Source of the DNA: a virus
Direction: 5' to 3' (one strand)
Virus record (IMG/VR): IMGVR_UViG_3300047678_000160
Span: 31,729-95,728 of that record
DNA: 64,000 nucleotides
Shown: positions 4,155-64,000 of the stretch, piece by piece
Numbering within the stretch: position 1 is the first letter of the stretch
Layout: each line of letters starts with the position of its first letter
The notes under the pieces: model-generated
Told to the model about the DNA's origin: nothing
What the model saw: only the letters and a program-made list of their open reading frames with translations
The model's database searches: none
Made by a program: the position numbers and the translations under genes

Positions 4155-4211
4155 TATTTATAGTCAAGGATATTCCTATACAGTTTTTGTATATATGACT
4201 ATTTATTATCA

Positions 4212-17257: not shown

Positions 17258-17331
17258 GCGTTTGTAGCTCAATGGCTGAGCAGTCGTCTCTAAAACGATG
17301 GATGTGGGTTCGAGTCCCATCTGACGCACCA
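17258..17331 (+). tRNA. Amber suppressor tRNA (anticodon CUA)
   Basis: Cloverleaf: acceptor GCGTTTG/CTGACGC, D-arm GCTC/GAGC, anticodon stem GTCGT/ACGAT with loop CT-CTA-AA (CTA at 17290-17292), T-arm GTGGG-TTCGAGT-CCCAT, encoded ACCA. Confidence 0.88.
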
Positions 17332-55137: not shown

Positions 55138-55632
55138 ATGAAAAAGCTAACATACGTCAAAGGAAACCTACTCACTAGACAGGACATTGGTATCATTGGC
55201 CATCAAGCCAATTGTCAAAATACGTTTGGAGGTGGAATCGCTAAGTCAATTCGTGAAATGTTTCCCGAAGCATACGCAGCCGACACGGCTGCCCATAATG
55301 CTGGAATGAATCGCCCGGGTTCGATTAGCGTCAGCCATAGATTTCCTGACGCCGTTAGCTCTATCGGAACCATTTTCAACCTTTATGGACAAAATTTGAA
55401 TGGTAAGGGTAAAAGACAAACAAATTATGAAGCGTTGTTCAACGCTTTGAGCACAATGGCAAAAGAAGTCTGTCACAGCTCAGTCATGACTGGACTGACA
55501 CCAGCCGTTGGGTTTCCTTACTTGATTGGTTGTGGTCTGGGTGGAGGAGATTGGAACATTGTTGAGCGCCTCATTGAGGTTGCTTTTGAACATTATGATG
55601 GTGATGTAATCATTGTTGTATTTGTTAATTAA
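55138..55632 (+). CDS. Macro domain protein (ADP-ribose binding/hydrolase)
   Basis: KGNLL, HQANC..TFGGGIA, NLYGQ, FPYLIGCGLGGGDW. Confidence 0.88.
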   Translation: MKKLTYVKGNLLTRQDIGIIGHQANCQNTFGGGIAKSIREMFPEAYAADTAAHNAGMNRPGSISVSHRFPDAVSSIGTIFNLYGQNLNGKGKRQTNYEALFNALSTMAKEVCHSSVMTGLTPAVGFPYLIGCGLGGGDWNIVERLIEVAFEHYDGDVIIVVFVN

Positions 55633-55633
55633 A

Positions 55634-56155
55634 ATGAATCAGAAAAAAATCATATTCTTGGATATTGATGGTGTTTTAAACCATCATCTGTTCTATGTTG
55701 CCGAAAAAGAAGCCGGTAGGATAGGGCAAAGAGATACTGACCCAAAAAGTGTAGAATACCTAAATACTCTATGCAATGAAACGGGAGCAGAAGTTGTTGT
55801 ATCCTCAACATGGAGGCTCGGCCGCACCACGGAACAACTTCAAGAACTTTTGAAAGAAGCTGGATTCACCGGAAAAGTCATTGGTCGAACCGAAGACCTA
55901 CGATATGGTAAAGGTGGAGAATCAATCCTTAGAGGAAATGAGATTCTTCATTGGATTAAAGAAAACACGAAACTCATTGGAGCGGAATATTGGCAATACA
56001 AAAGTTATGTTATTCTCGACGATGATTCTGATATGTTGTATTGGCAGAAGGACAATTTTATTCTCGTTGACCATTATTGCGGCATCACTCCATCCACAAT
56101 TTTTCAAGCTAAGAAAATTTTGGGAGCAAAATTGACCATCGCCGCTATTCCTTAA
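55634..56155 (+). CDS. HAD phosphatase (Swiss-Army-knife RNA repair type)
   Basis: IFLDIDGVLN, VVSSTWR, RGNEI..W, YVILDDDSDM. Confidence 0.85.
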   Translation: MNQKKIIFLDIDGVLNHHLFYVAEKEAGRIGQRDTDPKSVEYLNTLCNETGAEVVVSSTWRLGRTTEQLQELLKEAGFTGKVIGRTEDLRYGKGGESILRGNEILHWIKENTKLIGAEYWQYKSYVILDDDSDMLYWQKDNFILVDHYCGITPSTIFQAKKILGAKLTIAAIP

Positions 56156-56185
56156 CTTTTTATATTTTAGCCAATACCATACCTT

Positions 56186-56569
56186 ATGTTCAACTTATAC
56201 TTAGACGATGTTCGTGTCCCAACCGATTCCTACACAGGAAAATCTGCGGAAGGATGGACTATTGTTCGAAGCTACGATGAATTCGTTAAAATCATAACTG
56301 AGAAGGGATTGCCCTACATAATCAGTTTTGACCACGACCTCGCCGACGAACATGTTTATGATTACATTCTCAACGTAAGACGAGAAGGGACAATCAATTA
56401 CGACAAATACAGAGAGAAAACCGGCCTTAGTTGTGCTAAGTGGTTGGTGGAGTATTGTATGGACAAGAATCTTCCGCTCCCTGGCTACGCTGTTCATAGT
56501 GCCAATCCCATTGGTGCAGAGAACATTAAGTCGTATCTTGAGTCTTATTTAAAAAGTAGAATCGAATAA
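56186..56569 (+). CDS. Cyclic-phosphate-processing receiver-like domain protein
   Basis: LYLDDVR.P, RSYDEF, ISFDHDL, KTG..CAKWL, HSANP.G..NI. Confidence 0.8.
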   Translation: MFNLYLDDVRVPTDSYTGKSAEGWTIVRSYDEFVKIITEKGLPYIISFDHDLADEHVYDYILNVRREGTINYDKYREKTGLSCAKWLVEYCMDKNLPLPGYAVHSANPIGAENIKSYLESYLKSRIE

Positions 56570-56572
56570 TTT

Positions 56573-56872
56573 ATGAAAATCCCAAAGAGAGTCAAACAAG
56601 TCAGTCGCAAAGAGAGAAAATCTCTCGTCTCGCGTGGCTTGAAACTAAATGAAGAGGCCGGAGAGCTGGCCGCTGAAATTCTCAAGTTCGTTGGTGAGAA
56701 AGGTGCCAAGGGAAAGAGCAAGAAAGAAATCCTCGCCGACCTTCATCTTGAAGCCGTTGACTGTCTTTTGATGGCTATGGACATTCTCGTTCACACAGGC
56801 GCATCTGAGAAGGTAATCAGCCGAATCATGAACAGCCAGCTCAATAAATGGGAAAGGAATTTCAAAAAATGA
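56573..56872 (+). CDS. MazG-like NTP pyrophosphohydrolase
   Basis: KLNEEAGELA, EAVD, KW. Confidence 0.75.
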   Translation: MKIPKRVKQVSRKERKSLVSRGLKLNEEAGELAAEILKFVGEKGAKGKSKKEILADLHLEAVDCLLMAMDILVHTGASEKVISRIMNSQLNKWERNFKK

Positions 56873-57165
56873 ACCTAAAAGGCACATACATCCACTGGAA
56901 AAACGAAGAGAAAGTTGATAATAAGTTCATCAAGAACTTTTACACTTCGGACAATCTTCGCTCGACTGTTTCCAAACTGAAATTGTCCAAGAGAGAGTTT
57001 GTAACTCTGTTGAAGGGTTTTACGAGCAAAGAATTGAAGCTCTTTGTTGATGGAAACAACCACCACCAGCTAATGGCTAACACGCCTGAGGATTTACATG
57101 TTCTCATGGACAAGTTTGCCAATGTCACTGGCTTCAAGGGTGCTCGATTCATTGAAATTCTATGA
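56869..57165 (+). CDS. Hypothetical protein
   Basis: Likely start MNLKGTY overlapping the upstream stop. Confidence 0.5.
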   Translation: MNLKGTYIHWKNEEKVDNKFIKNFYTSDNLRSTVSKLKLSKREFVTLLKGFTSKELKLFVDGNNHHQLMANTPEDLHVLMDKFANVTGFKGARFIEIL

Positions 57166-57917
57166 ATCTTTTGGTCTTACCTCCGAATCATACGGCTGAA
57201 GACCAAGGAATCTGGCGTGCAGCCATCCAACGTGGTTGGAAGACCATTCGCTTCAATGATAAAGATGACCCTGAATTGTTAAAGGGTTATGATATGGTTC
57301 GTTATTATGGTAACGTTCTTCATAAGTCTCGCATTGAAAAATTTCTTCCCATAAAGTTTAAAGAAGTTTCTCAAACTCTTCTTGCAGATTTAGACATTTC
57401 TTGGACCGGAAGAAAAATCAAGAGAATTCCGTTTGGAGATTTGGAAACTCCTCTTAAAGAGGATACATTTATCAAGTGCGTTGATATTAAATGGCTTGAG
57501 GCCAGAGTTTATCGCAAAGATGAAAAGCCTTCTAGCCAGTGGCAAGGTATGCAAGACAAAGATTTGATTTACGTTCAAGAACCCATTGTGTTTGTTGATG
57601 AGGTTCGTTGTTTTGTGAAAGGTAGAGACGTGCTGACCATGAGCATGTATAAAAAGAACAAAGTGTTCTATACAGAAAATATTCCAGTTAATCTCGAAAC
57701 GGCTATGTCTGGAATGTGCTGTTCCCATTCTTATTGGCTCACTGAGCCAGAATTTATGAAATTGAACTTGCCTGAGGGAGTTGTTCTCGATTACGGATGC
57801 ACGGAATATGGAATTTGGTATTTTATCGAAGCAAATGAAGCATGGGGGAGTGGATTGTATGACTGTGACCCTAATAAGGCATTTGACGCCATCATTGCAT
57901 CACAAGAAAATTTATGA
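57162..57917 (+). CDS. ATP-grasp domain protein (DUF4343/R2K-like)
   Basis: FIK, EVRCFV, VLDYG...W..IEANEAWGSGLYDCDP. Confidence 0.75.
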   Translation: MNLLVLPPNHTAEDQGIWRAAIQRGWKTIRFNDKDDPELLKGYDMVRYYGNVLHKSRIEKFLPIKFKEVSQTLLADLDISWTGRKIKRIPFGDLETPLKEDTFIKCVDIKWLEARVYRKDEKPSSQWQGMQDKDLIYVQEPIVFVDEVRCFVKGRDVLTMSMYKKNKVFYTENIPVNLETAMSGMCCSHSYWLTEPEFMKLNLPEGVVLDYGCTEYGIWYFIEANEAWGSGLYDCDPNKAFDAIIASQENL

Positions 57918-58102
57918 AAAAGAAAAATCAATCTTACTTAGTCAAATTCACCTACGATTATTATTGTCAAGGTTATGAGGACACCCGTGAAACTGTTTTG
58001 GTTCACAACTGTCCTTCTTTCGAAGCTGCTTGTAATAGAATCAGAATTGTAAGCACTTATCTTAACGCTCGTGATTTTGAAAACCTGACCATTGATATTT
58101 GA
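57914..58102 (+). CDS. Small hypothetical protein
   Basis: 62-aa ORF with coupled start. Confidence 0.5.
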   Translation: MKKKNQSYLVKFTYDYYCQGYEDTRETVLVHNCPSFEAACNRIRIVSTYLNARDFENLTIDI

Positions 58103-58103
58103 T

Positions 58104-58589
58104 ATGAAAAAATTTTCTACAATTGATTGGAAGACCATTGCTACACATGATGAAAGCAATGTGAAAGGATTTTTTGGCCCATGCCGTTTTCTTTCCAATT
58201 TTCATTTGTGTAAAATTGAATTTGAAGGTAGATTCTATCCAAGCACAGAAAACGCTTATCAAGCAGCGAAGATTGTTCATGATGAACGTGGATTTTTCAC
58301 TACTTGTAGCCCAAATGAATCAAAAACTCTTTGGAAAAAGCTAACGAAGATAGACTCTTCTTCAATTGAATGGGATGCTCGACGCTTATACGTGATGAAT
58401 CCTCTTGTCATTCAGAAGTTTACTGAGCACGATGATTTGAAACAGCTTTTATTAGACACAGGCGACAGATACCTAGAAGAAACGAACTGGTGGGAGGATT
58501 CATTTTGGGGAGTTGATACGAAGCTAGGTGGAAAAAACCATCTGGGCAAGCTTTTAATGGAAGTGAGGACTTCGCTAAGACAAAAATAA
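58104..58589 (+). CDS. NADAR (YbiA-like) family protein
   Basis: FLSNF, YPSTENAYQAAK, KF..H..LKQLLL.TG...L.E.N.W.D.FWG, G.NHLGKLLM.VR. Confidence 0.9.
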   Translation: MKKFSTIDWKTIATHDESNVKGFFGPCRFLSNFHLCKIEFEGRFYPSTENAYQAAKIVHDERGFFTTCSPNESKTLWKKLTKIDSSSIEWDARRLYVMNPLVIQKFTEHDDLKQLLLDTGDRYLEETNWWEDSFWGVDTKLGGKNHLGKLLMEVRTSLRQK

Positions 58590-58715
58590 CATATTATAAG
58601 TCATTAATAACCAATTACTTACAAAAATGTGTGAGAAAAGTAAAAAACTTTATTGACTTTTGATTTTTTTCCCTTCATTGTTCTACTTATAGATAGAACA
58701 AATTCACTTTCAACA

Positions 58716-58835
58716 ATGACCTATACAGTCTCAACCTTTACAGCAAAGCCTATCCACTCCCAATGGAGCGTGTGCGGCATTGCACTTCCATTGGAAGCAC
58801 GTAAAGGTGATAATATGGGAAAGATGGGCCTCTAA
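58716..58835 (+). CDS. Putative attenuator leader peptide (39 aa, contains all 20 amino acids)
   Basis: MTYTVSTFTAKPIHSQWSVCGIALPLEARKGDNMGKMGL; 31 different codons; stop region base-pairs with the terminator 5' arm. Confidence 0.7.
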   Translation: MTYTVSTFTAKPIHSQWSVCGIALPLEARKGDNMGKMGL

Positions 58836-58904
58836 GGCGATTTTAAAAGAGTAAAATCCAAAACCTTAAAGGCCCACCGACCATGAAAAGTCAGTGGGTT
58901 TTTT
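58825..58904 (+). promoter_or_regulatory. Antiterminator/terminator switch upstream of the tRNA array
   Basis: Antiterminator TGGGCCTCTAAGG (58825-37) with CCTTAAAGGCCCA (58864-76); terminator CCCACCGAC (58873-81) with GTCAGTGGG (58890-98) plus T6; the two share CCCA. Confidence 0.75.
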
Positions 58905-58939
58905 GTTTAACAAATTTTCAAAATAATTCAAGATAAAGA

Positions 58940-58968
58940 TTGACAGTTTATAAATTTTAGTTTAGAGT
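58940..58968 (+). promoter_or_regulatory. Sigma70-like promoter upstream of the tRNA array
   Basis: TTGACA-17-TAGAGT. Confidence 0.5.
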
Positions 58969-59284
58969 TCAGTTCCGTTATTTTACAGTTCAAATTTTTT
59001 TAGTGATAGTTGGGGTAAAGACGCACCCAGCCAAGAAAGCGTATTAAAATAGCCACCGAGCATAGAGTCCTATGGAGGATGAATCTACGGCATCGTTTTG
59101 TGGGATTCAATATCAACATATTCAGTGATAGGTTAGTGTTAGTGAGAAATATGTTGTGAGGCCGAAGTGTATAATTATTTTTTAGAATTGGGGAAAGAAG
59201 ACTTCAACAGAGCGTTTACGTTTGAGAATGTTTTTCTTTCCCCTTACTTTGGGTTTGTCAGTTCCGCATAAAAACTGACCTTAT

Positions 59285-59368
59285 GGTGTCGTTCCTATAG
59301 CGGCGAATAGCTCTGGCTCTTAACCAGATATACAAACAACGGGGGTTCGAGTCCCTCCGGCACCACCA
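59285..59368 (+). tRNA. tRNA-Lys(CTT), atypical
   Basis: Anticodon arm TCTGG-CTCTTAA-CCAGA; long unpaired variable region; CCA. Confidence 0.85.
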
Positions 59369-59429
59369 CTTTTAGAGAACAGCTGGACGGAGACTCCGTT
59401 AATAAATTAACCAGTGTGGTTCTTGTCAT

Positions 59430-59521
59430 TCCTCGGTAGGCTAATTGGTAAGCCGGCAGGCTGTTAACCTGTGTAAGCTCGTAAGAGTTCGATGGAGGTT
59501 CGAGACCTCCCTGGGGAGCCA
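59430..59521 (+). tRNA. tRNA-Asn(GTT) with long variable arm
   Basis: GCAGG-CTGTTAA-CCTGT; variable hairpin AGCTC-GTAA-GAGTT; GCCA end. Confidence 0.85.
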
Positions 59522-59529
59522 TTTCAAAT

Positions 59530-59605
59530 GCATCGGTAGCTCAATTGGTAGAGTGTCTGCCTTCCAAGCAGAATGTTGCAGGTTCGACTCCTGTTCGGTG
59601 CTCCA
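59530..59605 (+). tRNA. tRNA-Gly(TCC)
   Basis: TCTGC-CTTCCAA-GCAGA; TCCA end. Confidence 0.9.
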
Positions 59606-59618
59606 TTTTTTAGTATTT

Positions 59619-59702
59619 GCTTCGATTCCTGTAGCGGCGAACAGTTCAGACTTTTAATCTGACACACAAACATCGGGGGTTCGAGTCCCTCTCGGAGCAC
59701 CA
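59619..59702 (+). tRNA. tRNA-Lys(TTT), atypical
   Basis: TCAGA-CTTTTAA-TCTGA; long variable region; ACCA. Confidence 0.85.
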
Positions 59703-59711
59703 ATTTATCAT

Positions 59712-59788
59712 GGAGTTGTAGCTCAACTGTATAGAGCAACTGTCTTCGAAACAGAAGGTTGTGGGTTAGAGTCCCACTTACTCCACCA
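59712..59788 (+). tRNA. tRNA-Arg(TCG)
   Basis: CTGT-CTTCGAA-ACAG; T-loop TTAGAGT; ACCA. Confidence 0.75.
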
Positions 59789-59931
59789 TTTGTCGGGGCG
59801 GCTAGCACCCTGAACGTTTGTATAAGATAGTCGCCATTTCATGGCCGCATGTGTTCGTAAGTCTCTCTGAAAAGAGAGAGCCAAACAACCGGTAATACAG
59901 CGAAACGTCTGAGGACAAACGAAGAATTTAC

Positions 59932-60006
59932 GCGGAATTCATATACCGGCTATTATGTGAGTTTTCCAAACTTGACAAGGCGGCTCGACCCCGCCATTCC
60001 GCACCA
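59932..60006 (+). tRNA. tRNA-Gly(TCC), divergent second copy
   Basis: Acceptor GCGGAAT/ATTCCGC; TGAGT-TTTCCAA-ACTTG; T-loop CTCGACC. Confidence 0.7.
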
Positions 60007-60070
60007 ATTTCTGGCCAAGAAGAGGTAACACGGCGTAATTAACCTGTATGACCTCCTGAAACGTAATATG

Positions 60071-60147
60071 TTAGCTGTTCGGCTAGTGGCAGGCCAGCCC
60101 CCCCCTAAAGGGGCGCGCATAGGTTCGATTCCTATACAGATTAACCG
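60071..60147 (+). tRNA. Degenerate tRNA-like element with 8-nt anticodon loop CCCCTAAA
   Basis: D-arm GGC/GCC, stem GCCCC/GGGGC, T-arm ATAGG-TTCGATT-CCTAT; imperfect acceptor, no CCA. Confidence 0.45.
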
Positions 60148-60182
60148 CGACCTACGTTTCTTAAACTTTCTGTTAGTAATTT

Positions 60183-60268
60183 GGTGGCATCGCATAGCGG
60201 CAATTGCGCGGCACTGTAAATGCTGTGGCCTTCGGTCTTCGTTGGTTCGAGTCCAACTGTCACCACCA
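60183..60268 (+). tRNA. tRNA-Tyr(GTA)
   Basis: CGGCA-CTGTAAA-TGCTG; long variable arm; ACCA. Confidence 0.92.
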
Positions 60269-60274
60269 ATTTAT

Positions 60275-60351
60275 GGCGTCTTACTCAAGCGGTCCAAGAG
60301 GGTTCTCTGCAAAAGAACTATACGTCGGTTCGAATCCGACAGATGCCTCCA
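60275..60351 (+). tRNA. tRNA-Cys(GCA)
   Basis: GTTCT-CTGCAAA-AGAAC; TCCA. Confidence 0.92.
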
Positions 60352-60361
60352 TTTTTAATAT

Positions 60362-60436
60362 GCCGTATAAACATACATGGTGATGTGCGAGTCTTGTAAA
60401 CTTGAAAACTCAGTTCGATTCTGAGATATGGCTCCA
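60362..60436 (+). tRNA. tRNA-Thr(TGT)
   Basis: CGAGT-CTTGTAA-ACTTG; TCCA. Confidence 0.85.
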
Positions 60437-60448
60437 AACAAATTTTAT

Positions 60449-60522
60449 TGGGATATTGCATAGTGGTAGTGCCTGAGTCTTTGAAACTCGTGGTTATGGT
60501 TCGATTCCATATGTCCCAGCCA
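60449..60522 (+). tRNA. tRNA-Gln(TTG)
   Basis: TGAGT-CTTTGAA-ACTCG; T1-A72, GCCA. Confidence 0.88.
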
Positions 60523-60527
60523 ATTAC

Positions 60528-60603
60528 GGAAGCGTGGCTCGACCGATAAGGCGGCATCTTCATAAGGTGTATCATAAGGGTTTGACTCCCTTCGCTTCCC
60601 CCA
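60528..60603 (+). tRNA. tRNA with CAT anticodon (Met or Ile2), atypical
   Basis: GCATC-TTCATAA-GGTGT; acceptor GGAAGCG/CGCTTCC; CCCA. Confidence 0.7.
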
Positions 60604-60614
60604 TTTTTAAGTTT

Positions 60615-60690
60615 GCCCTTGTAGCTCAGCTGGTAGAGCGCGGTATTTGTAATGCCGATGTCGTCGGTTCGAACCCGTCCGAGGGCTCCA
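60615..60690 (+). tRNA. tRNA-Thr(TGT), second copy
   Basis: CGGTA-TTTGTAA-TGCCG; TCCA. Confidence 0.9.
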
Positions 60691-60704
60691 TTTAAGATTT
60701 TCAT

Positions 60705-60778
60705 CCATTAGAAGTGTTACGGTAGCACACACCGTTTGGGGCGGCGGAGACACAGTTCAATTCTGTGCTAGTGGACCA
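60705..60778 (+). tRNA. tRNA-Pro(TGG)
   Basis: CCG-TTTGGGG-CGG; acceptor CCATTAG/CTAGTGG; ACCA. Confidence 0.75.
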
Positions 60779-60784
60779 TTTTAT

Positions 60785-60860
60785 GGCGCGTAAGATTTGC
60801 TGTTGAATTACGTTCTTGGTAAGAACGACCAATGCGGTTAGACTCCGCAACGCGCATCCA
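60785..60860 (+). tRNA. tRNA-Thr(GGT), atypical D/T loops
   Basis: CGTTC-TTGGTAA-GAACG; TCCA. Confidence 0.7.
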
Positions 60861-60929
60861 TTTCAATTTGTTCAAACAGTGTTCAAAGAGGTTCGAAACT
60901 TGGAGAAGCGACTGTGGATTAGTATTCGG

Positions 60930-61003
60930 TGGGTTATAGCTCAGAGGTAGAGCGTCCTCCTAATAAGAGGAAGGTCGGAGGTTCAATCCCTTCTAATCGG
61001 TTA
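60930..61003 (+). tRNA. Pseudo-tRNA-Ile(AAT)
   Basis: TCCTC-CTAATAA-GAGGA; good D-arm; broken acceptor, no CCA. Confidence 0.45.
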
Positions 61004-61029
61004 TTCAGAATATGAGTCCTTAACTTTAC

Positions 61030-61106
61030 GCAGATGTAGTTCAATTGGTAGAATGCTTCGTTGCCAACGAAGAGGTTTGTCGGTTCGAGCCCGACCATCT
61101 GCACCA
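61030..61106 (+). tRNA. tRNA-Gly(GCC)
   Basis: CTTCG-TTGCCAA-CGAAG; ACCA. Confidence 0.9.
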
Positions 61107-61332
61107 TTTAAATTTTGTTAAAGATGAGAGTTCAAGTCACGTTTTGTTATTGTAGTTGATATGACTACCAAATTACAATAGTCGGTGACACTTAATACAT
61201 GTGCGAAATGCTCATCTGTAATTCCTTTTGAAAAAAGAAGAAATAAATTATGTAATTGACTACAGCAGACATCATAGATTTATCTATGTGTGGGTCGTCA
61301 CTATAACGCCCACTGCACTCTAAAAACTTTAT

Positions 61333-61404
61333 GGTGTCGGTTTGGGTAAACAGCATCCGTTGAAGGCGGAAGCATCTGGGGTTCGAATCCCCGAGGCACC
61401 ACCA
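61333..61404 (+). tRNA. tRNA-Phe(GAA) with shortened D-arm region
   Basis: TCCG-TTGAAGG-CGGA; T-arm GGGG-TTCGAAT-CCCC; ACCA. Confidence 0.55.
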
Positions 61405-61409
61405 CTTAT

Positions 61410-61484
61410 GGTCGAGTAGCACAATGGTAGTGCTCCGTCTTGATAAGGCGTAGGTTGTGGGTTCGAGTCCCACTTCGACCACCA
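61410..61484 (+). tRNA. tRNA-Ile(GAT)
   Basis: CGTC-TTGATAA-GGCG; ACCA. Confidence 0.88.
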
Positions 61485-61486
61485 AT

Positions 61487-61782
61487 TTGAGGGTCTTTGC
61501 GACTCCTCAAAAAAGGAGTTCTTTTTCAAAAAGAAAAACACCTGAAGAAATATTTGGTATGTGCTCCGATATTAGAGTAAAAACCACTCTTTTGTGTAGA
61601 GCGCTAATAGAAATAGGAACAGAATACAAATGTGTTAAATGTAACACAGGAAAAACATACAATAATTTACCGATAGTTTTAGAAATTGACCATATAGATG
61701 AAAATTGGAAAACAATAGAAAAGAAAATCTTCAATTTATGTGTCCGAATTGTCATAGTCAAAAAACTAAGGGTTTGAAATAA
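61487..61782 (+). pseudogene. Truncated, frameshifted HNH homing endonuclease within the tRNA array
   Basis: YKCVKC, LEIDHID, then after adding one A: NNRKENLQFMCPNCHSQ. Confidence 0.7.
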
Positions 61783-61785
61783 TTT

Positions 61786-61869
61786 GGGCATGTGGCGTAA
61801 TGGCAGCCGCGCAAGTCTTAGGAACTTGTTTCGAAAGAAGTGTGGGTTCGAGTCCCCCCGTGCCCACCA
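61786..61869 (+). tRNA. tRNA-Leu(TAG)
   Basis: CAAGT-CTTAGGA-ACTTG; variable arm; ACCA. Confidence 0.9.
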
Positions 61870-61874
61870 TTTTT

Positions 61875-61960
61875 GGTCGTGTGATGGAATGGCAGACATA
61901 CTTGTTTCAGAAGCAAGCACCTTAACTGGTATGAGGGTTCGAGTCCCTCTGCGACTACCA
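61875..61960 (+). tRNA. tRNA-Leu(CAG)
   Basis: CTTGT-TTCAGAA-GCAAG; variable arm; ACCA. Confidence 0.88.
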
Positions 61961-62142
61961 TTTTAGAATTTGTATGATGCGTTGAGGTTTTCCCTACTCA
62001 ACACTTAGACGAGAAGCTCGTAAACATCAAATAGGTCAAGGGCGACGGACAAGGGGCAACGCGCTACCTACCTGTCGCTGGAAACGTCGGCTCCCCAATC
62101 GATATTCCACAATGGGGCAAAACGGTTGACTTAACAATTTAT

Positions 62143-62217
62143 AGCAGAGTAGAGTATGTGGTAACTTATTTGGCTCATAACCAAGCGCAACGGATTCAAA
62201 CGCCGTCTCTGCTACCA
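62143..62217 (+). tRNA. tRNA-Met(CAT), initiator-like body
   Basis: TTGG-CTCATAA-CCAA; acceptor AGCAGAG/CTCTGCT; ACCA. Confidence 0.75.
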
Positions 62218-62221
62218 TTTC

Positions 62222-62305
62222 GGGGGGATAGCTCAGTAGATTAGAGCACCATCAAGTAGCAATACACGATGGAGGTCGAAGGTTTAAATCCTTCTCCCCC
62301 CACCA
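62222..62305 (+). ncRNA. tRNA-like RNA lacking a canonical anticodon loop
   Basis: Perfect acceptor GGGGGGA/TCCCCCC plus ACCA, D- and T-arms; anticodon arm CCATC-AA-GTA-GCAA-TAC-AC-GATGG. Confidence 0.65.
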
Positions 62306-62311
62306 TTTTAT

Positions 62312-62387
62312 CGGAGTGTATTGTCAGTGGTAGACGGCCGCCTTTGGAGCGCGGAGGCCGTGGGTTCGAATCCCACCATTCCGACCA
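62312..62387 (+). tRNA. tRNA-Pro(TGG), second copy
   Basis: CCGC.-TTTGGAG-.GCGG; C1-G72; ACCA. Confidence 0.85.
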
Positions 62388-62392
62388 TTTAT

Positions 62393-62470
62393 CGTGATTA
62401 AGCTGAAGAACAACGAAGTGTCTCCTTTGGTGGAGAGGATTACAACGTGGAAGTCGTTGGGTCACTACCA
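62393..62470 (+). tRNA. Degenerate tRNA, identity uncertain (6-nt loop TTTGGT)
   Basis: Acceptor GTGATT/GGTCAC, stem TCTCC/GGAGA, ACCA end, non-canonical T-loop. Confidence 0.4.
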
Positions 62471-62501
62471 ATTTAACGATTTAGGAGTCATGACCTAAAA
62501 C

Positions 62502-62576
62502 GTCGCATCTGAGCCTGGACGGACGCCTTCACTGAGGGCAATATCGATTAGTTGGTTCAATTCCAACGGTGCGACA
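62502..62576 (+). ncRNA. tRNA-like element with 8-bp acceptor and no CCA
   Basis: GTCGCATC/GGTGCGAC; T-arm GTTGG-TTCAATT-CCAAC; anticodon ambiguous. Confidence 0.35.
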
Positions 62577-62584
62577 AATTTTAT

Positions 62585-62658
62585 GGGAGTATCATATATG
62601 GGTATTATGCTGCGCTGTCTACGCAATCAAGCGAGTTCGAGTCTCGCTACTCTCGCCA
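62585..62658 (+). tRNA. tRNA-Asp(GTC)
   Basis: TGCG-CTGTCTA-CGCA; GCCA. Confidence 0.88.
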
Positions 62659-62663
62659 TTTAT

Positions 62664-62739
62664 GGGAATATAGTGAAATTGGATATAATAGCGCCCCGCG
62701 AAGGCTCAGTTTTGGGTTCGAATCCCAATATTCCCACCA
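62664..62739 (+). tRNA. tRNA with GCG anticodon (Arg), atypical
   Basis: GCC-CCGCGAA-GGC; acceptor GGGAATA/TATTCCC; ACCA. Confidence 0.6.
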
Positions 62740-62743
62740 TTTT

Positions 62744-62818
62744 GCCTTGGTCGTTCAACGGATAGGACCACTGACTTCTAATCAGTTGATGAGAGTTCGA
62801 TTCTCTCCCGGGGCACCA
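62744..62818 (+). tRNA. tRNA-Arg(TCT)
   Basis: ACTGA-CTTCTAA-TCAGT; ACCA. Confidence 0.92.
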
Positions 62819-62822
62819 CTTT

Positions 62823-62907
62823 ATTGATGAATGACAGAAACGAAGGTTCAAATCCTTCTCTCCGACCACCGGGGATGGTTCAATCAGGTAAAACACTTCA
62901 CATCAAT
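62823..62907 (+). ncRNA. Circularly permuted tRNA mimic (YrlA/Y-RNA-like)
   Basis: Order is T-arm, acceptor stem closed by loop ACCAC, then D-arm; 5' and 3' ends pair (ATTGATG/CATCAAT) with bulges. Confidence 0.6.
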
Positions 62908-62917
62908 TTCAATTTAT

Positions 62918-62993
62918 GGCCCAGTCATTACTAAGGGTAGGTAACGAAGCTTTCAACTTCGGAATCGGAGTTCGACTCTCCGCTGGGCTACCA
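62918..62993 (+). tRNA. tRNA-Glu(TTC)
   Basis: CGAAG-CTTTCAA-CTTCG; ACCA. Confidence 0.85.
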
Positions 62994-63085
62994 TTTGCTA
63001 AGAAAAAAACAGTATAGTCCAAAGATTATTTAGCGTTCTGTCACGAAGCTTCGTGTGTCTACTTGGAACTTAGCATTATTTTTGT

Positions 63086-63160
63086 GGCCTCATAGTATAT
63101 CGGCTAGTATATCTGATTTTCACTCAGAGGAGCCGGGTTCGATTCCCGGTGGGGCTACCA
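63086..63160 (+). tRNA. tRNA-Glu(TTC), second copy
   Basis: TCTGA-TTTTCAC-TCAGA; ACCA. Confidence 0.88.
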
Positions 63161-63272
63161 TTTTGCAAACAGTATTGTTCATTCGAATATTAGTTTGGAC
63201 ACTTGACTGGAAGTGATTTAGTGGGCGGTTGCGAAACTGCATTAGAACACGATTTCATTTCTTTAACTTTAC

Positions 63273-63347
63273 GGCGCTATCGTCTATCGGTTAGGACGAC
63301 TGGTTCTCAACCAGTGGAGCGGGGTTCGATTCCCCGTAGCGCTACCA
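63273..63347 (+). tRNA. tRNA-Glu(CTC)
   Basis: ACTGG-TTCTCAA-CCAGT; ACCA. Confidence 0.9.
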
Positions 63348-63351
63348 TTTC

Positions 63352-63427
63352 GGTTGTGTAGTCTTCGGGGTAAGGCACTTGCTCGACATGCAAGCTCAGG
63401 TGGGTTCGAGTCCCACCACAACCACCA
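63352..63427 (+). tRNA. tRNA-Val(GAC)
   Basis: CTTGC-TCGACAT-GCAAG; ACCA. Confidence 0.85.
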
Positions 63428-63430
63428 AAT

Positions 63431-63739
63431 AGTAATCGCCAGTTCAGATTTTCTTTATCATCCTATCCAAAAGAGTTCGACTTCAACATGATTGAAAAAT
63501 ACGGATGGTATTCAGCAAAAAACAAAGGCGACAATCCAAACGGAGTAAGTCGTGACCACATAATTTCAGTAAGATGGGCATTTGATAACGGCGTGGAGCC
63601 AAAGTGGATAAGCCACCCAGCAAACTGTCAGTTACTCAGACATAATGATAATGTGAGTAAAGGAAAGAAAAAATCAATTTCTCTTCAAGAACTCATAAAT
63701 AAGATTGAAGAATGGGATAAAAAATATTTGGGCTTGTAG
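63431..63739 (+). pseudogene. C-terminal remnant of an HNH homing endonuclease
   Basis: GVSRDHIISV...ISHPANCQLL...DN.SK; N-terminus absent; stop overlaps the next tRNA. Confidence 0.65.
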
Positions 63740-63804
63740 TGATAATGGCAGCACAGTTGATTTGCATTCAACAGGTAAGGGTTCGATTCCCTTCAGGTCC
63801 ACCA
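63730..63804 (+). tRNA. tRNA-Ala(TGC)
   Basis: GTTGA-TTTGCAT-TCAAC; G3:U70 present; ACCA. Confidence 0.92.
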
Positions 63805-63815
63805 TTTTAGATTTT

Positions 63816-63901
63816 GCTTCGGTTCCTATAGCGGCGAATAGTTTAGCCTTTTAAGCCGATGTGTAATAACCAACGGGGTTCGAGTCGCTCCCGGAGCACC
63901 A
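63816..63901 (+). tRNA. tRNA-Lys(TTT), atypical second copy
   Basis: Loop CTTTTAA; same odd D-arm and long variable region as the other Lys tRNAs; ACCA. Confidence 0.75.
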
Positions 63902-64000
63902 ATTACAACTGAGGTTGGGTTCAAATGAACAATCCAATCCGGAGAATCCAACTGATTCTCCTTCCGTGAAAGACGGACGCTTACTGATGACGGCATCGGT

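Follow-up and report, generated by a model that had tools for sequence, protein, structure and literature searches.

The window, i.e., the whole stretch of 64,000 nt that was analysed, covers two-thirds, at the 3' side, of a viral contig from IMG/VR that is 95.7 kb long and has an estimated completeness of 41%. Its phage is T4-like, encoding RIIA and a family B polymerase (PolB), and by PolB its nearest cultured relative is the Microcystis phage Mel-JY01 (41.5% polymerase identity), which has one tRNA and gives no information on the leader studied here. An RNA-repair-type cluster is followed by a leader region of about 700 nt and then by 29 tRNA genes that extend to the contig end. The cluster (55138-58589; Macro, HAD_SAK_2, cREC_REC, R2K ATP-grasp and NADAR) lies directly 5' of leader and array. 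The tRNA array itself (59285-64000, + strand, 29 ARAGORN calls) starts with Lys(CTT) and runs off the contig.

All features of the leader region are on the + strand. A sigma-70-like promoter, P1 (58653-58681, TTGACT and CATTGT spaced by 17 nt), is followed by the late-type promoter motif TACTTATAG (58684-58692), one mismatch from TATTTATAG. The leader ORF (58716-58835) starts 24 nt past this motif and 35 nt past the -10 box of P1, and runs from ATG to TAA (stop at 58833-58835) with 39 sense codons. Re-reading it gave what had been annotated, i.e., 31 distinct codons and all 20 amino acids, the last of them reached by residue 33. The initial annotation had put the chance of finding all 20 in 39 residues at about 1%, which is close to the 0.34% we computed from the window phage's own amino-acid frequencies. 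Among the 137 ATG ORFs of 30-45 codons in the window, one has all 20 amino acids, namely the leader. Since 1/137 comparable ORFs shows it, the property is not beyond chance in the window alone, and the significance of the leader's composition derives from its relatives. No codon run is found in the leader, unlike the regulatory codons of classical attenuators.

The last three leader codons and the stop form the 5' arm of an antiterminator hairpin (58825-58876). As described before, 12 of the 13 bases in 58825-58837 find their partner in 58864-58876, enclosing an inner hairpin (58839-58858) of 58839-58845 with 58852-58858. The intrinsic terminator (58873-58904) was likewise recovered: 58873-58881 pairs with 58890-58898 around an 8-nt loop (8/9 pairs, one C.A mismatch), and T6 follows at 58899-58904. 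Both structures need CCCA (58873-58876) and are mutually exclusive, in agreement with the earlier proposal. The antiterminator alone folds at -20.7 kcal/mol. It dominates the local 87-nt RNA at equilibrium, where the terminator pair probability is about 0.04; forcing the terminator costs 1.8 kcal/mol in this RNA and 5.2 kcal/mol if the whole leader is included. With -69.6 kcal/mol (z -4.86), the region 58690-58910 folds unusually well. Such a value would also suit a non-coding small RNA or a 3' UTR structure at the terminator of the upstream NADAR gene with a merely fortuitous ORF, as would the chance-level composition of the ORF within the window. On the other hand, no Rfam family matches the leader and the RNA downstream of it (58400-59400) at E-values up to 10, and the relatives provide further evidence on this point.

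Polymerase relatives that bear tRNA arrays gave true sequence homologues of the leader region, e.g., G011, to which blastn aligns window positions 58644-59182 with 63% identity (E 2.5e-31). The conserved block downstream of P2, the second promoter behind the terminator, served as search pattern. It recovered 35 viral loci as well as 24 metagenome loci, two of which (L126, L128) are chance matches. The 34 further viral loci provide 20 further distinct leader regions. Homologous leaders are thereby found 5' of arrays of 20-30 tRNA genes in about 50 viral and metagenome contigs plus unrelated phages. In all cases, a large tRNA array follows the cassette in the same orientation. In the relatives, this array occupies the same place on the same strand and often starts with Lys(CTT) as in the window.

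Relatives identified via NADAR share no intergenic similarity with the window, except that locus L008 shows the same architecture. It is part of the complete 146.9-kb phage G001 and presents, 450 nt before a 20-tRNA array, a promoter block, a short ORF, a hairpin/terminator and a TTGACA promoter. The same architecture is seen in G018 and G019, which were found as relatives of G001. The window's PolB has no homologue in G001, such that the cassette is shared by phages that are not related. When compared via blastn with cultured phages, the regions of the window, L008 and L091 gave no or trivial matches, such that no cultured carrier is known. The element is also not universal, because no such leader was found upstream in G010, G014, G015 and G017; the same holds for the second cluster of G011 and the gaps of the G011 array. 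A DNA pattern search based on the terminator gave unrelated terminators of another phage group, and a search with the back-translated peptide pattern nothing new.

The initial annotation had staked its proposal on conservation of the ORF, and in the relatives the ORF is indeed kept in frame through indels while the peptide drifts. It is open in 34/34 related viral loci with enough upstream sequence and also in 15 further metagenome loci and in other phages. Leader lengths are 20, 22, 23, 37-40, 43, 47 and 51 codons. Main-family leaders align codon by codon with indels being one-codon events, and the variant of G004/G005/G007 has a 45-nt in-frame deletion (15 codons) that leaves start and stop unchanged. 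The distance from stop to T-tract, by contrast, varies by single bases (45-60 nt). An ATG-to-stop frame in every relative with indels that are all multiples of three, next to a stop-to-T-tract spacing that changes in single-base steps, argues against the fortuitous ORF of a non-coding RNA. The element furthermore has its own conserved promoter. In the 21 distinct relatives of alignment A4, TTGAC of P1 is invariant, CAT.GT nearly so and the spacing the same, and the P1 block is also found in L008, G013 and L138. We thus regard the non-coding explanation as extremely unlikely. With regard to translation, 92/108 genes of the window phage have no Shine-Dalgarno sequence. Its absence at the leader is therefore no evidence against translation, and a ribosome-binding-site test is not applicable to leaders of these phages, as they lack such sequences.

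A coding ORF could also specify a small protein that is functional itself and has a promoter and a terminator of its own; the hairpin at the stop codon would then be just one part of a compound terminator. Conservation of the ORF and of parts of the main-family peptide, i.e., a Trp..Cys-Phe-Ile..Gln-Pro core and a Gly-Val-Ala end, would agree with this. The constraint on the peptide is weak, however: pN/pS is 0.55, and variability shows almost no bias by codon position (22/19/25 variable sites of 38). A protein would also have to function at any length from 20 to 51 codons and to tolerate the 15-codon internal deletion, while its Gly-Val-Ala end falls on the antiterminator arm, where it covaries with the partner strand. 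Together with the folding controls given below, this makes a functional protein very unlikely. Weak peptide constraint fits a leader whose translation would matter more than its product.

Both helices are family features. In alignment A4, the antiterminator helix is 86.7% paired compared to 38-61% for slid controls, and the terminator is 84.8% paired and followed by a T-run. Covariation, which the initial annotation expected for the stop-overlapping antiterminator, is seen in two pairs, namely 219-282 (GC 8, AU 7) and 228-273 (UA 9, AU 7), with seven covarying sequences for each pair. Column 228 corresponds to the third, synonymous position in the codon of the last Ala. None of 500 shuffles (0/500) reached the observed antiterminator covariation score. 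RNAalifold in addition proposes that codons 5-6 form 5 bp with the 5' arm of the antiterminator. This is a candidate upstream pause or anti-antiterminator (1:2) helix, as would allow termination without translation, and it shows no covariation.

The geometry is conserved as well. Co-transcriptional folds were computed for RNA that ends with the terminator loop. In the window as well as in 18/18 main-family members, the partner of the terminator 5' arm is provided by the last codons (-11 to -3 relative to the stop). This partner lies 15-28 nt upstream of the stop in L074 and G013 and just after the stop in G001 and G018. That is, the ORF ends in or beside the antiterminator 5' arm in every lineage examined, and the same helix competition is built from differing sequences in the window, L074, L138, L008, G013, G018 and G019.

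To represent translation, the ribosome was modelled as a mask of 30 nt, an assumed footprint, and base-pair probabilities were computed at equilibrium. To mimic stalling, the mask was put on codon 5, on the middle of the ORF or ten codons ahead of its end. If the ribosome is instead at the stop, terminator probabilities of 0.96-0.99 result in 10/11 members of the mask model. For ribosomes stalled upstream, the predicted values drop to 0.00-0.26 in the window, L073, L076, L078, L008 and L111. The response to stalling is partial in L075 and G013, and the equilibrium model predicts only a weak switch for L091 and L112. In L074, whose stop is located farther downstream, it is the arm itself that has to be masked. 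Without any ribosome, the terminator probability is 0.85-0.92 in L008 and L111 compared to 0.04-0.26 in L076 and the window. L008 and L111 hence follow a three-state logic in the model, where an absent ribosome terminates, a stalled one reads through and a finished one terminates. The observed switch size of 0.73-0.98 falls to about zero when the upstream part is dinucleotide-shuffled, and 0-2 of 150 shuffles reach the observed value. The loss of any ribosome-dependent switch upon shuffling upstream sequence also speaks against the small-protein explanation. Folding both states, as had been suggested, thus supports a ribosome-dependent switch within the limits of a thermodynamic model, in which the end of the ORF is placed such that a terminating ribosome masks the antiterminator while one stalled upstream does not.

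Our main reading, to which we assign a rough probability of 65%, is that a ribosome-mediated (trp-type) attenuator gates read-through from the upstream promoter into the phage tRNA array. RNA polymerase would start at P1 or at the late-type motif and transcribe the leader ORF. The hairpin of final codons and stop would then sequester the terminator 5' arm. A ribosome that arrives at the ORF end would melt or mask this antiterminator, such that the terminator can fold and transcription would end about 35 nt short of P2. If the ribosome is held up earlier in the ORF, the antiterminator would stay intact and the polymerase would continue into the array. The leader attenuator would thus probably raise tRNA production when ribosomes decode slowly. 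The annotated combination of a translated leader and an antiterminator that covers its stop and excludes the terminator is backed, at the level of sequence analysis, by conservation and covariation in the relatives. Translation of the ORF and read-through upon stalling are what we infer from these patterns.

The well-known enterobacterial leader-peptide attenuators (trpL, hisL, leuL, thrL, pheL and the ilv leaders) regulate biosynthetic enzymes. The phage element shares with them a promoter-proximal short ORF, an intrinsic terminator and an antiterminator that uses bases of the terminator 5' arm, and in both the position of the ribosome at or before the ORF end decides on the helix (here according to the model). 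Unlike them, it targets a tRNA array, has no codon run and is followed by a second promoter after the terminator. By its predicted structure the element is a leader-peptide attenuator, one that departs from the known ones by the lack of a codon run and by its tRNA target.

The second promoter, P2 (58940-58968, TTGACA-17-TAGAGT), is present downstream of the terminator as annotated. The initial annotation had cautioned that the attenuator may for this reason control only the upstream transcript, a caveat that holds for the relatives too: P2 is kept as TTGACA with a TA.AGT/ATAGT -10 box in 19/21 distinct relatives, and TTGACA promoters occupy the equivalent place in L008 and G019. Only part of the transcription of the array can therefore be gated, since the conserved P2 bypasses the attenuator. 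Plausibly, the host polymerase would express the array from P2 without gating, and transcripts that begin at the upstream and late promoter would reach it only via the attenuator. The late-type motif TACTTATAG has TATTTAT as its counterpart in the family, and in G018 the T4 late consensus TATAAATA occurs 10 nt before the leader ATG. Across the contig, TATTTATAG / TATTTATA(G) has 12 copies on the + strand, of which most precede a gene start at a short distance and some directly follow a terminator. TATTTATA(G), with copies, e.g., at window positions 4155, 15925, 27947 and 30172, is the reverse complement of the T4 late consensus and a candidate phage-specific (late) promoter.

With regard to what the attenuator senses, we compared the amino-acid composition of 31 distinct leaders. 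All 20 types are found in 13 of them, 19 types in 14, and 18, 17, 14 and 13 types in one each. The claimed diversity hence recurs in diverged and unrelated phages (27/31 leaders hold 19-20 types), while the strict presence of all 20 does not (13/31). The most extreme case is the leader of L008 (8167-8229), which has 19 types in 20 codons (exact P 7.7e-7). No other of 3011 small ORFs is an outlier like this, and the runner-up has 17 types. Combining 8 representatives below 60% identity gives a Stouffer Z of 5.4, where independence is overstated, and the diversity statistics are not fully independent, because the lineages share ancestry. The window was left out of this test since it had been picked for its all-20 trait, and the extreme leader of G001 is not among the 8 either.

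Diversity also appears to be kept while its carriers move. A column-shuffle test yields an observed mean of 19.44 types compared to 18.81 +/- 0.15. Several amino acids are found at alternative alignment positions, i.e., Tyr at 4, 9 or 15, Arg at 18, at 26 or on an inserted codon, and Leu at 7, 12 or 18. The leader of L124 has its rare Cys not at the conserved place but seven residues later. If the last 8 codons are removed, diversity is still high but less extreme (z +1.5 to +2.4). Residues that occur only in the last 7-8 codons, which in the main family are Asp and Val, would not be sensed, as a ribosome there already masks the antiterminator.

The same attenuator could report only ribosome loading and movement, i.e., translation capacity or coupling, without being tuned to individual tRNAs and with diversity as a by-product or under weak selection. 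Leaders of low diversity are what such a general report would allow. The G004/G005/G007 lineage (L078:6871-6942) has 13 types in 23 codons and keeps the attenuator, and G019 has 14 types in 20 codons and keeps the structures; completeness of the amino-acid set is thus not required. The weak peptide constraint (pN/pS 0.55) points the same way, as do the amino acids confined to the last codons, where the antiterminator determines the sequence. Nor do amino acids missing from the leader match tRNAs missing from the array, e.g., the Glu-less L076 leader precedes an array with tRNA-Glu, and the idea that leaders match their own arrays in codons or amino acids is not supported. What this explanation leaves unaccounted for is a diversity far above random in most lineages, up to 19 types in 20 codons, and the reappearance of lost amino acids elsewhere in the peptide. 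On balance we consider it rather unlikely.

Under attenuation by a leader that samples almost all amino acids once or twice each, the element would provide feedback on the general aminoacyl-tRNA supply. Transcription of the array would then rise whenever codons of almost any class are decoded slowly. The natural signal would be a shortage of tRNAs, caused for instance by host anticodon nucleases or loss of host tRNAs; an anticodon nuclease as the actual trigger is speculative. A wider version, which we put forward tentatively at a little short of even odds, is that large phages run a homeostatic feedback on tRNA supply. The leader would act as a universal gauge of decoding speed, a shortage of any aminoacyl-tRNA (through host anticodon nucleases, host tRNA decay or mismatched codon usage) would boost the whole array, and the cassette would have spread between unrelated phages with arrays.

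Other known systems resemble the element in part. T-boxes bind one specific uncharged tRNA independently of translation and regulate aminoacyl-tRNA synthetase and amino-acid genes. They share with the proposed phage element the choice between terminator and antiterminator in response to the charging of tRNAs. A T-box riboswitch was rejected as a candidate for the locus, as no Rfam T-box match was found in 58400-59400 at E-values up to 10. The leaders of ermC, cat and similar resistance genes respond at specific peptide motifs to ribosomes that have bound a drug, and their effect is mostly on translation initiation of the downstream gene. There, too, a short ORF reports a stalled ribosome via RNA rearrangement and without amino-acid specificity; the phage leader, in contrast, has no such motif and no downstream protein gene.

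We found neither a published attenuator of a tRNA operon nor a description of this element in the literature, and to our knowledge the control of phage tRNA genes is essentially unknown. The nearest published system we found is the trn array of Anabaena sp. PCC 7120, a long tRNA operon that is induced under translational stress (PMC8421152) and controlled at its promoter by the repressor TrcR, which acts on direct repeats (PMC10272220). Like the phage array, it comprises a large supernumerary set of tRNAs with neighbouring or co-regulated RNA-repair genes (rtcB in Anabaena). Leader peptides, attenuation and terminators are not mentioned in the Anabaena paper, whereas control in the phage would act at the terminator via a translated leader. 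Phage tRNAs have been linked to escape from tRNA-cleaving defences (PMC10264068, PMC11464382, PMC11555353). If our reading is correct, attenuation would no longer be limited to sensing one amino acid for one pathway but could monitor decoding capacity in general, and no earlier attenuator would have been reported for a tRNA operon. The predicted response of a cassette of about 330 nt to the depletion of any single tRNA might also be of use in synthetic reporters of translation health.

P2 is separated from the first tRNA by a conserved structured RNA (58975-59284, + strand), with 63-64% identity to relatives over about 370-550 nt. Family-wide, it shows near-invariant blocks and three consensus helices, one of them a long hairpin.

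The arrays themselves have further peculiarities. Two tRNAs of the window have a CUA anticodon, one within the array (60071-60146) and one far away (17258-17331); they are amber suppressors and are called Pyl by ARAGORN. The genes for tRNA-Lys and tRNA-Asn are unusually long (84-92 nt) due to enlarged variable regions (window 59285-59368, 59430-59521 and 59619-59702). Long tRNA-Lys and tRNA-Asn of differing sequence are also found in the unrelated phage G001 (L008 10298-10576). A gap of the window array holds an ORF of 106 codons (61457-61777), which has a weak homologue (33%) in an array gap of G001 and a terminator-like hairpin (61501-61520) at its start. In G018, a tmRNA gene ends the tRNA array (L109 3762-4148). 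Between the G018 leader and its first intact tRNA, we observe an endonuclease-like ORF and tRNA-like fragments (L111 1340-1500, 1506-2160), which suggests a mobile insertion at the head of this array.
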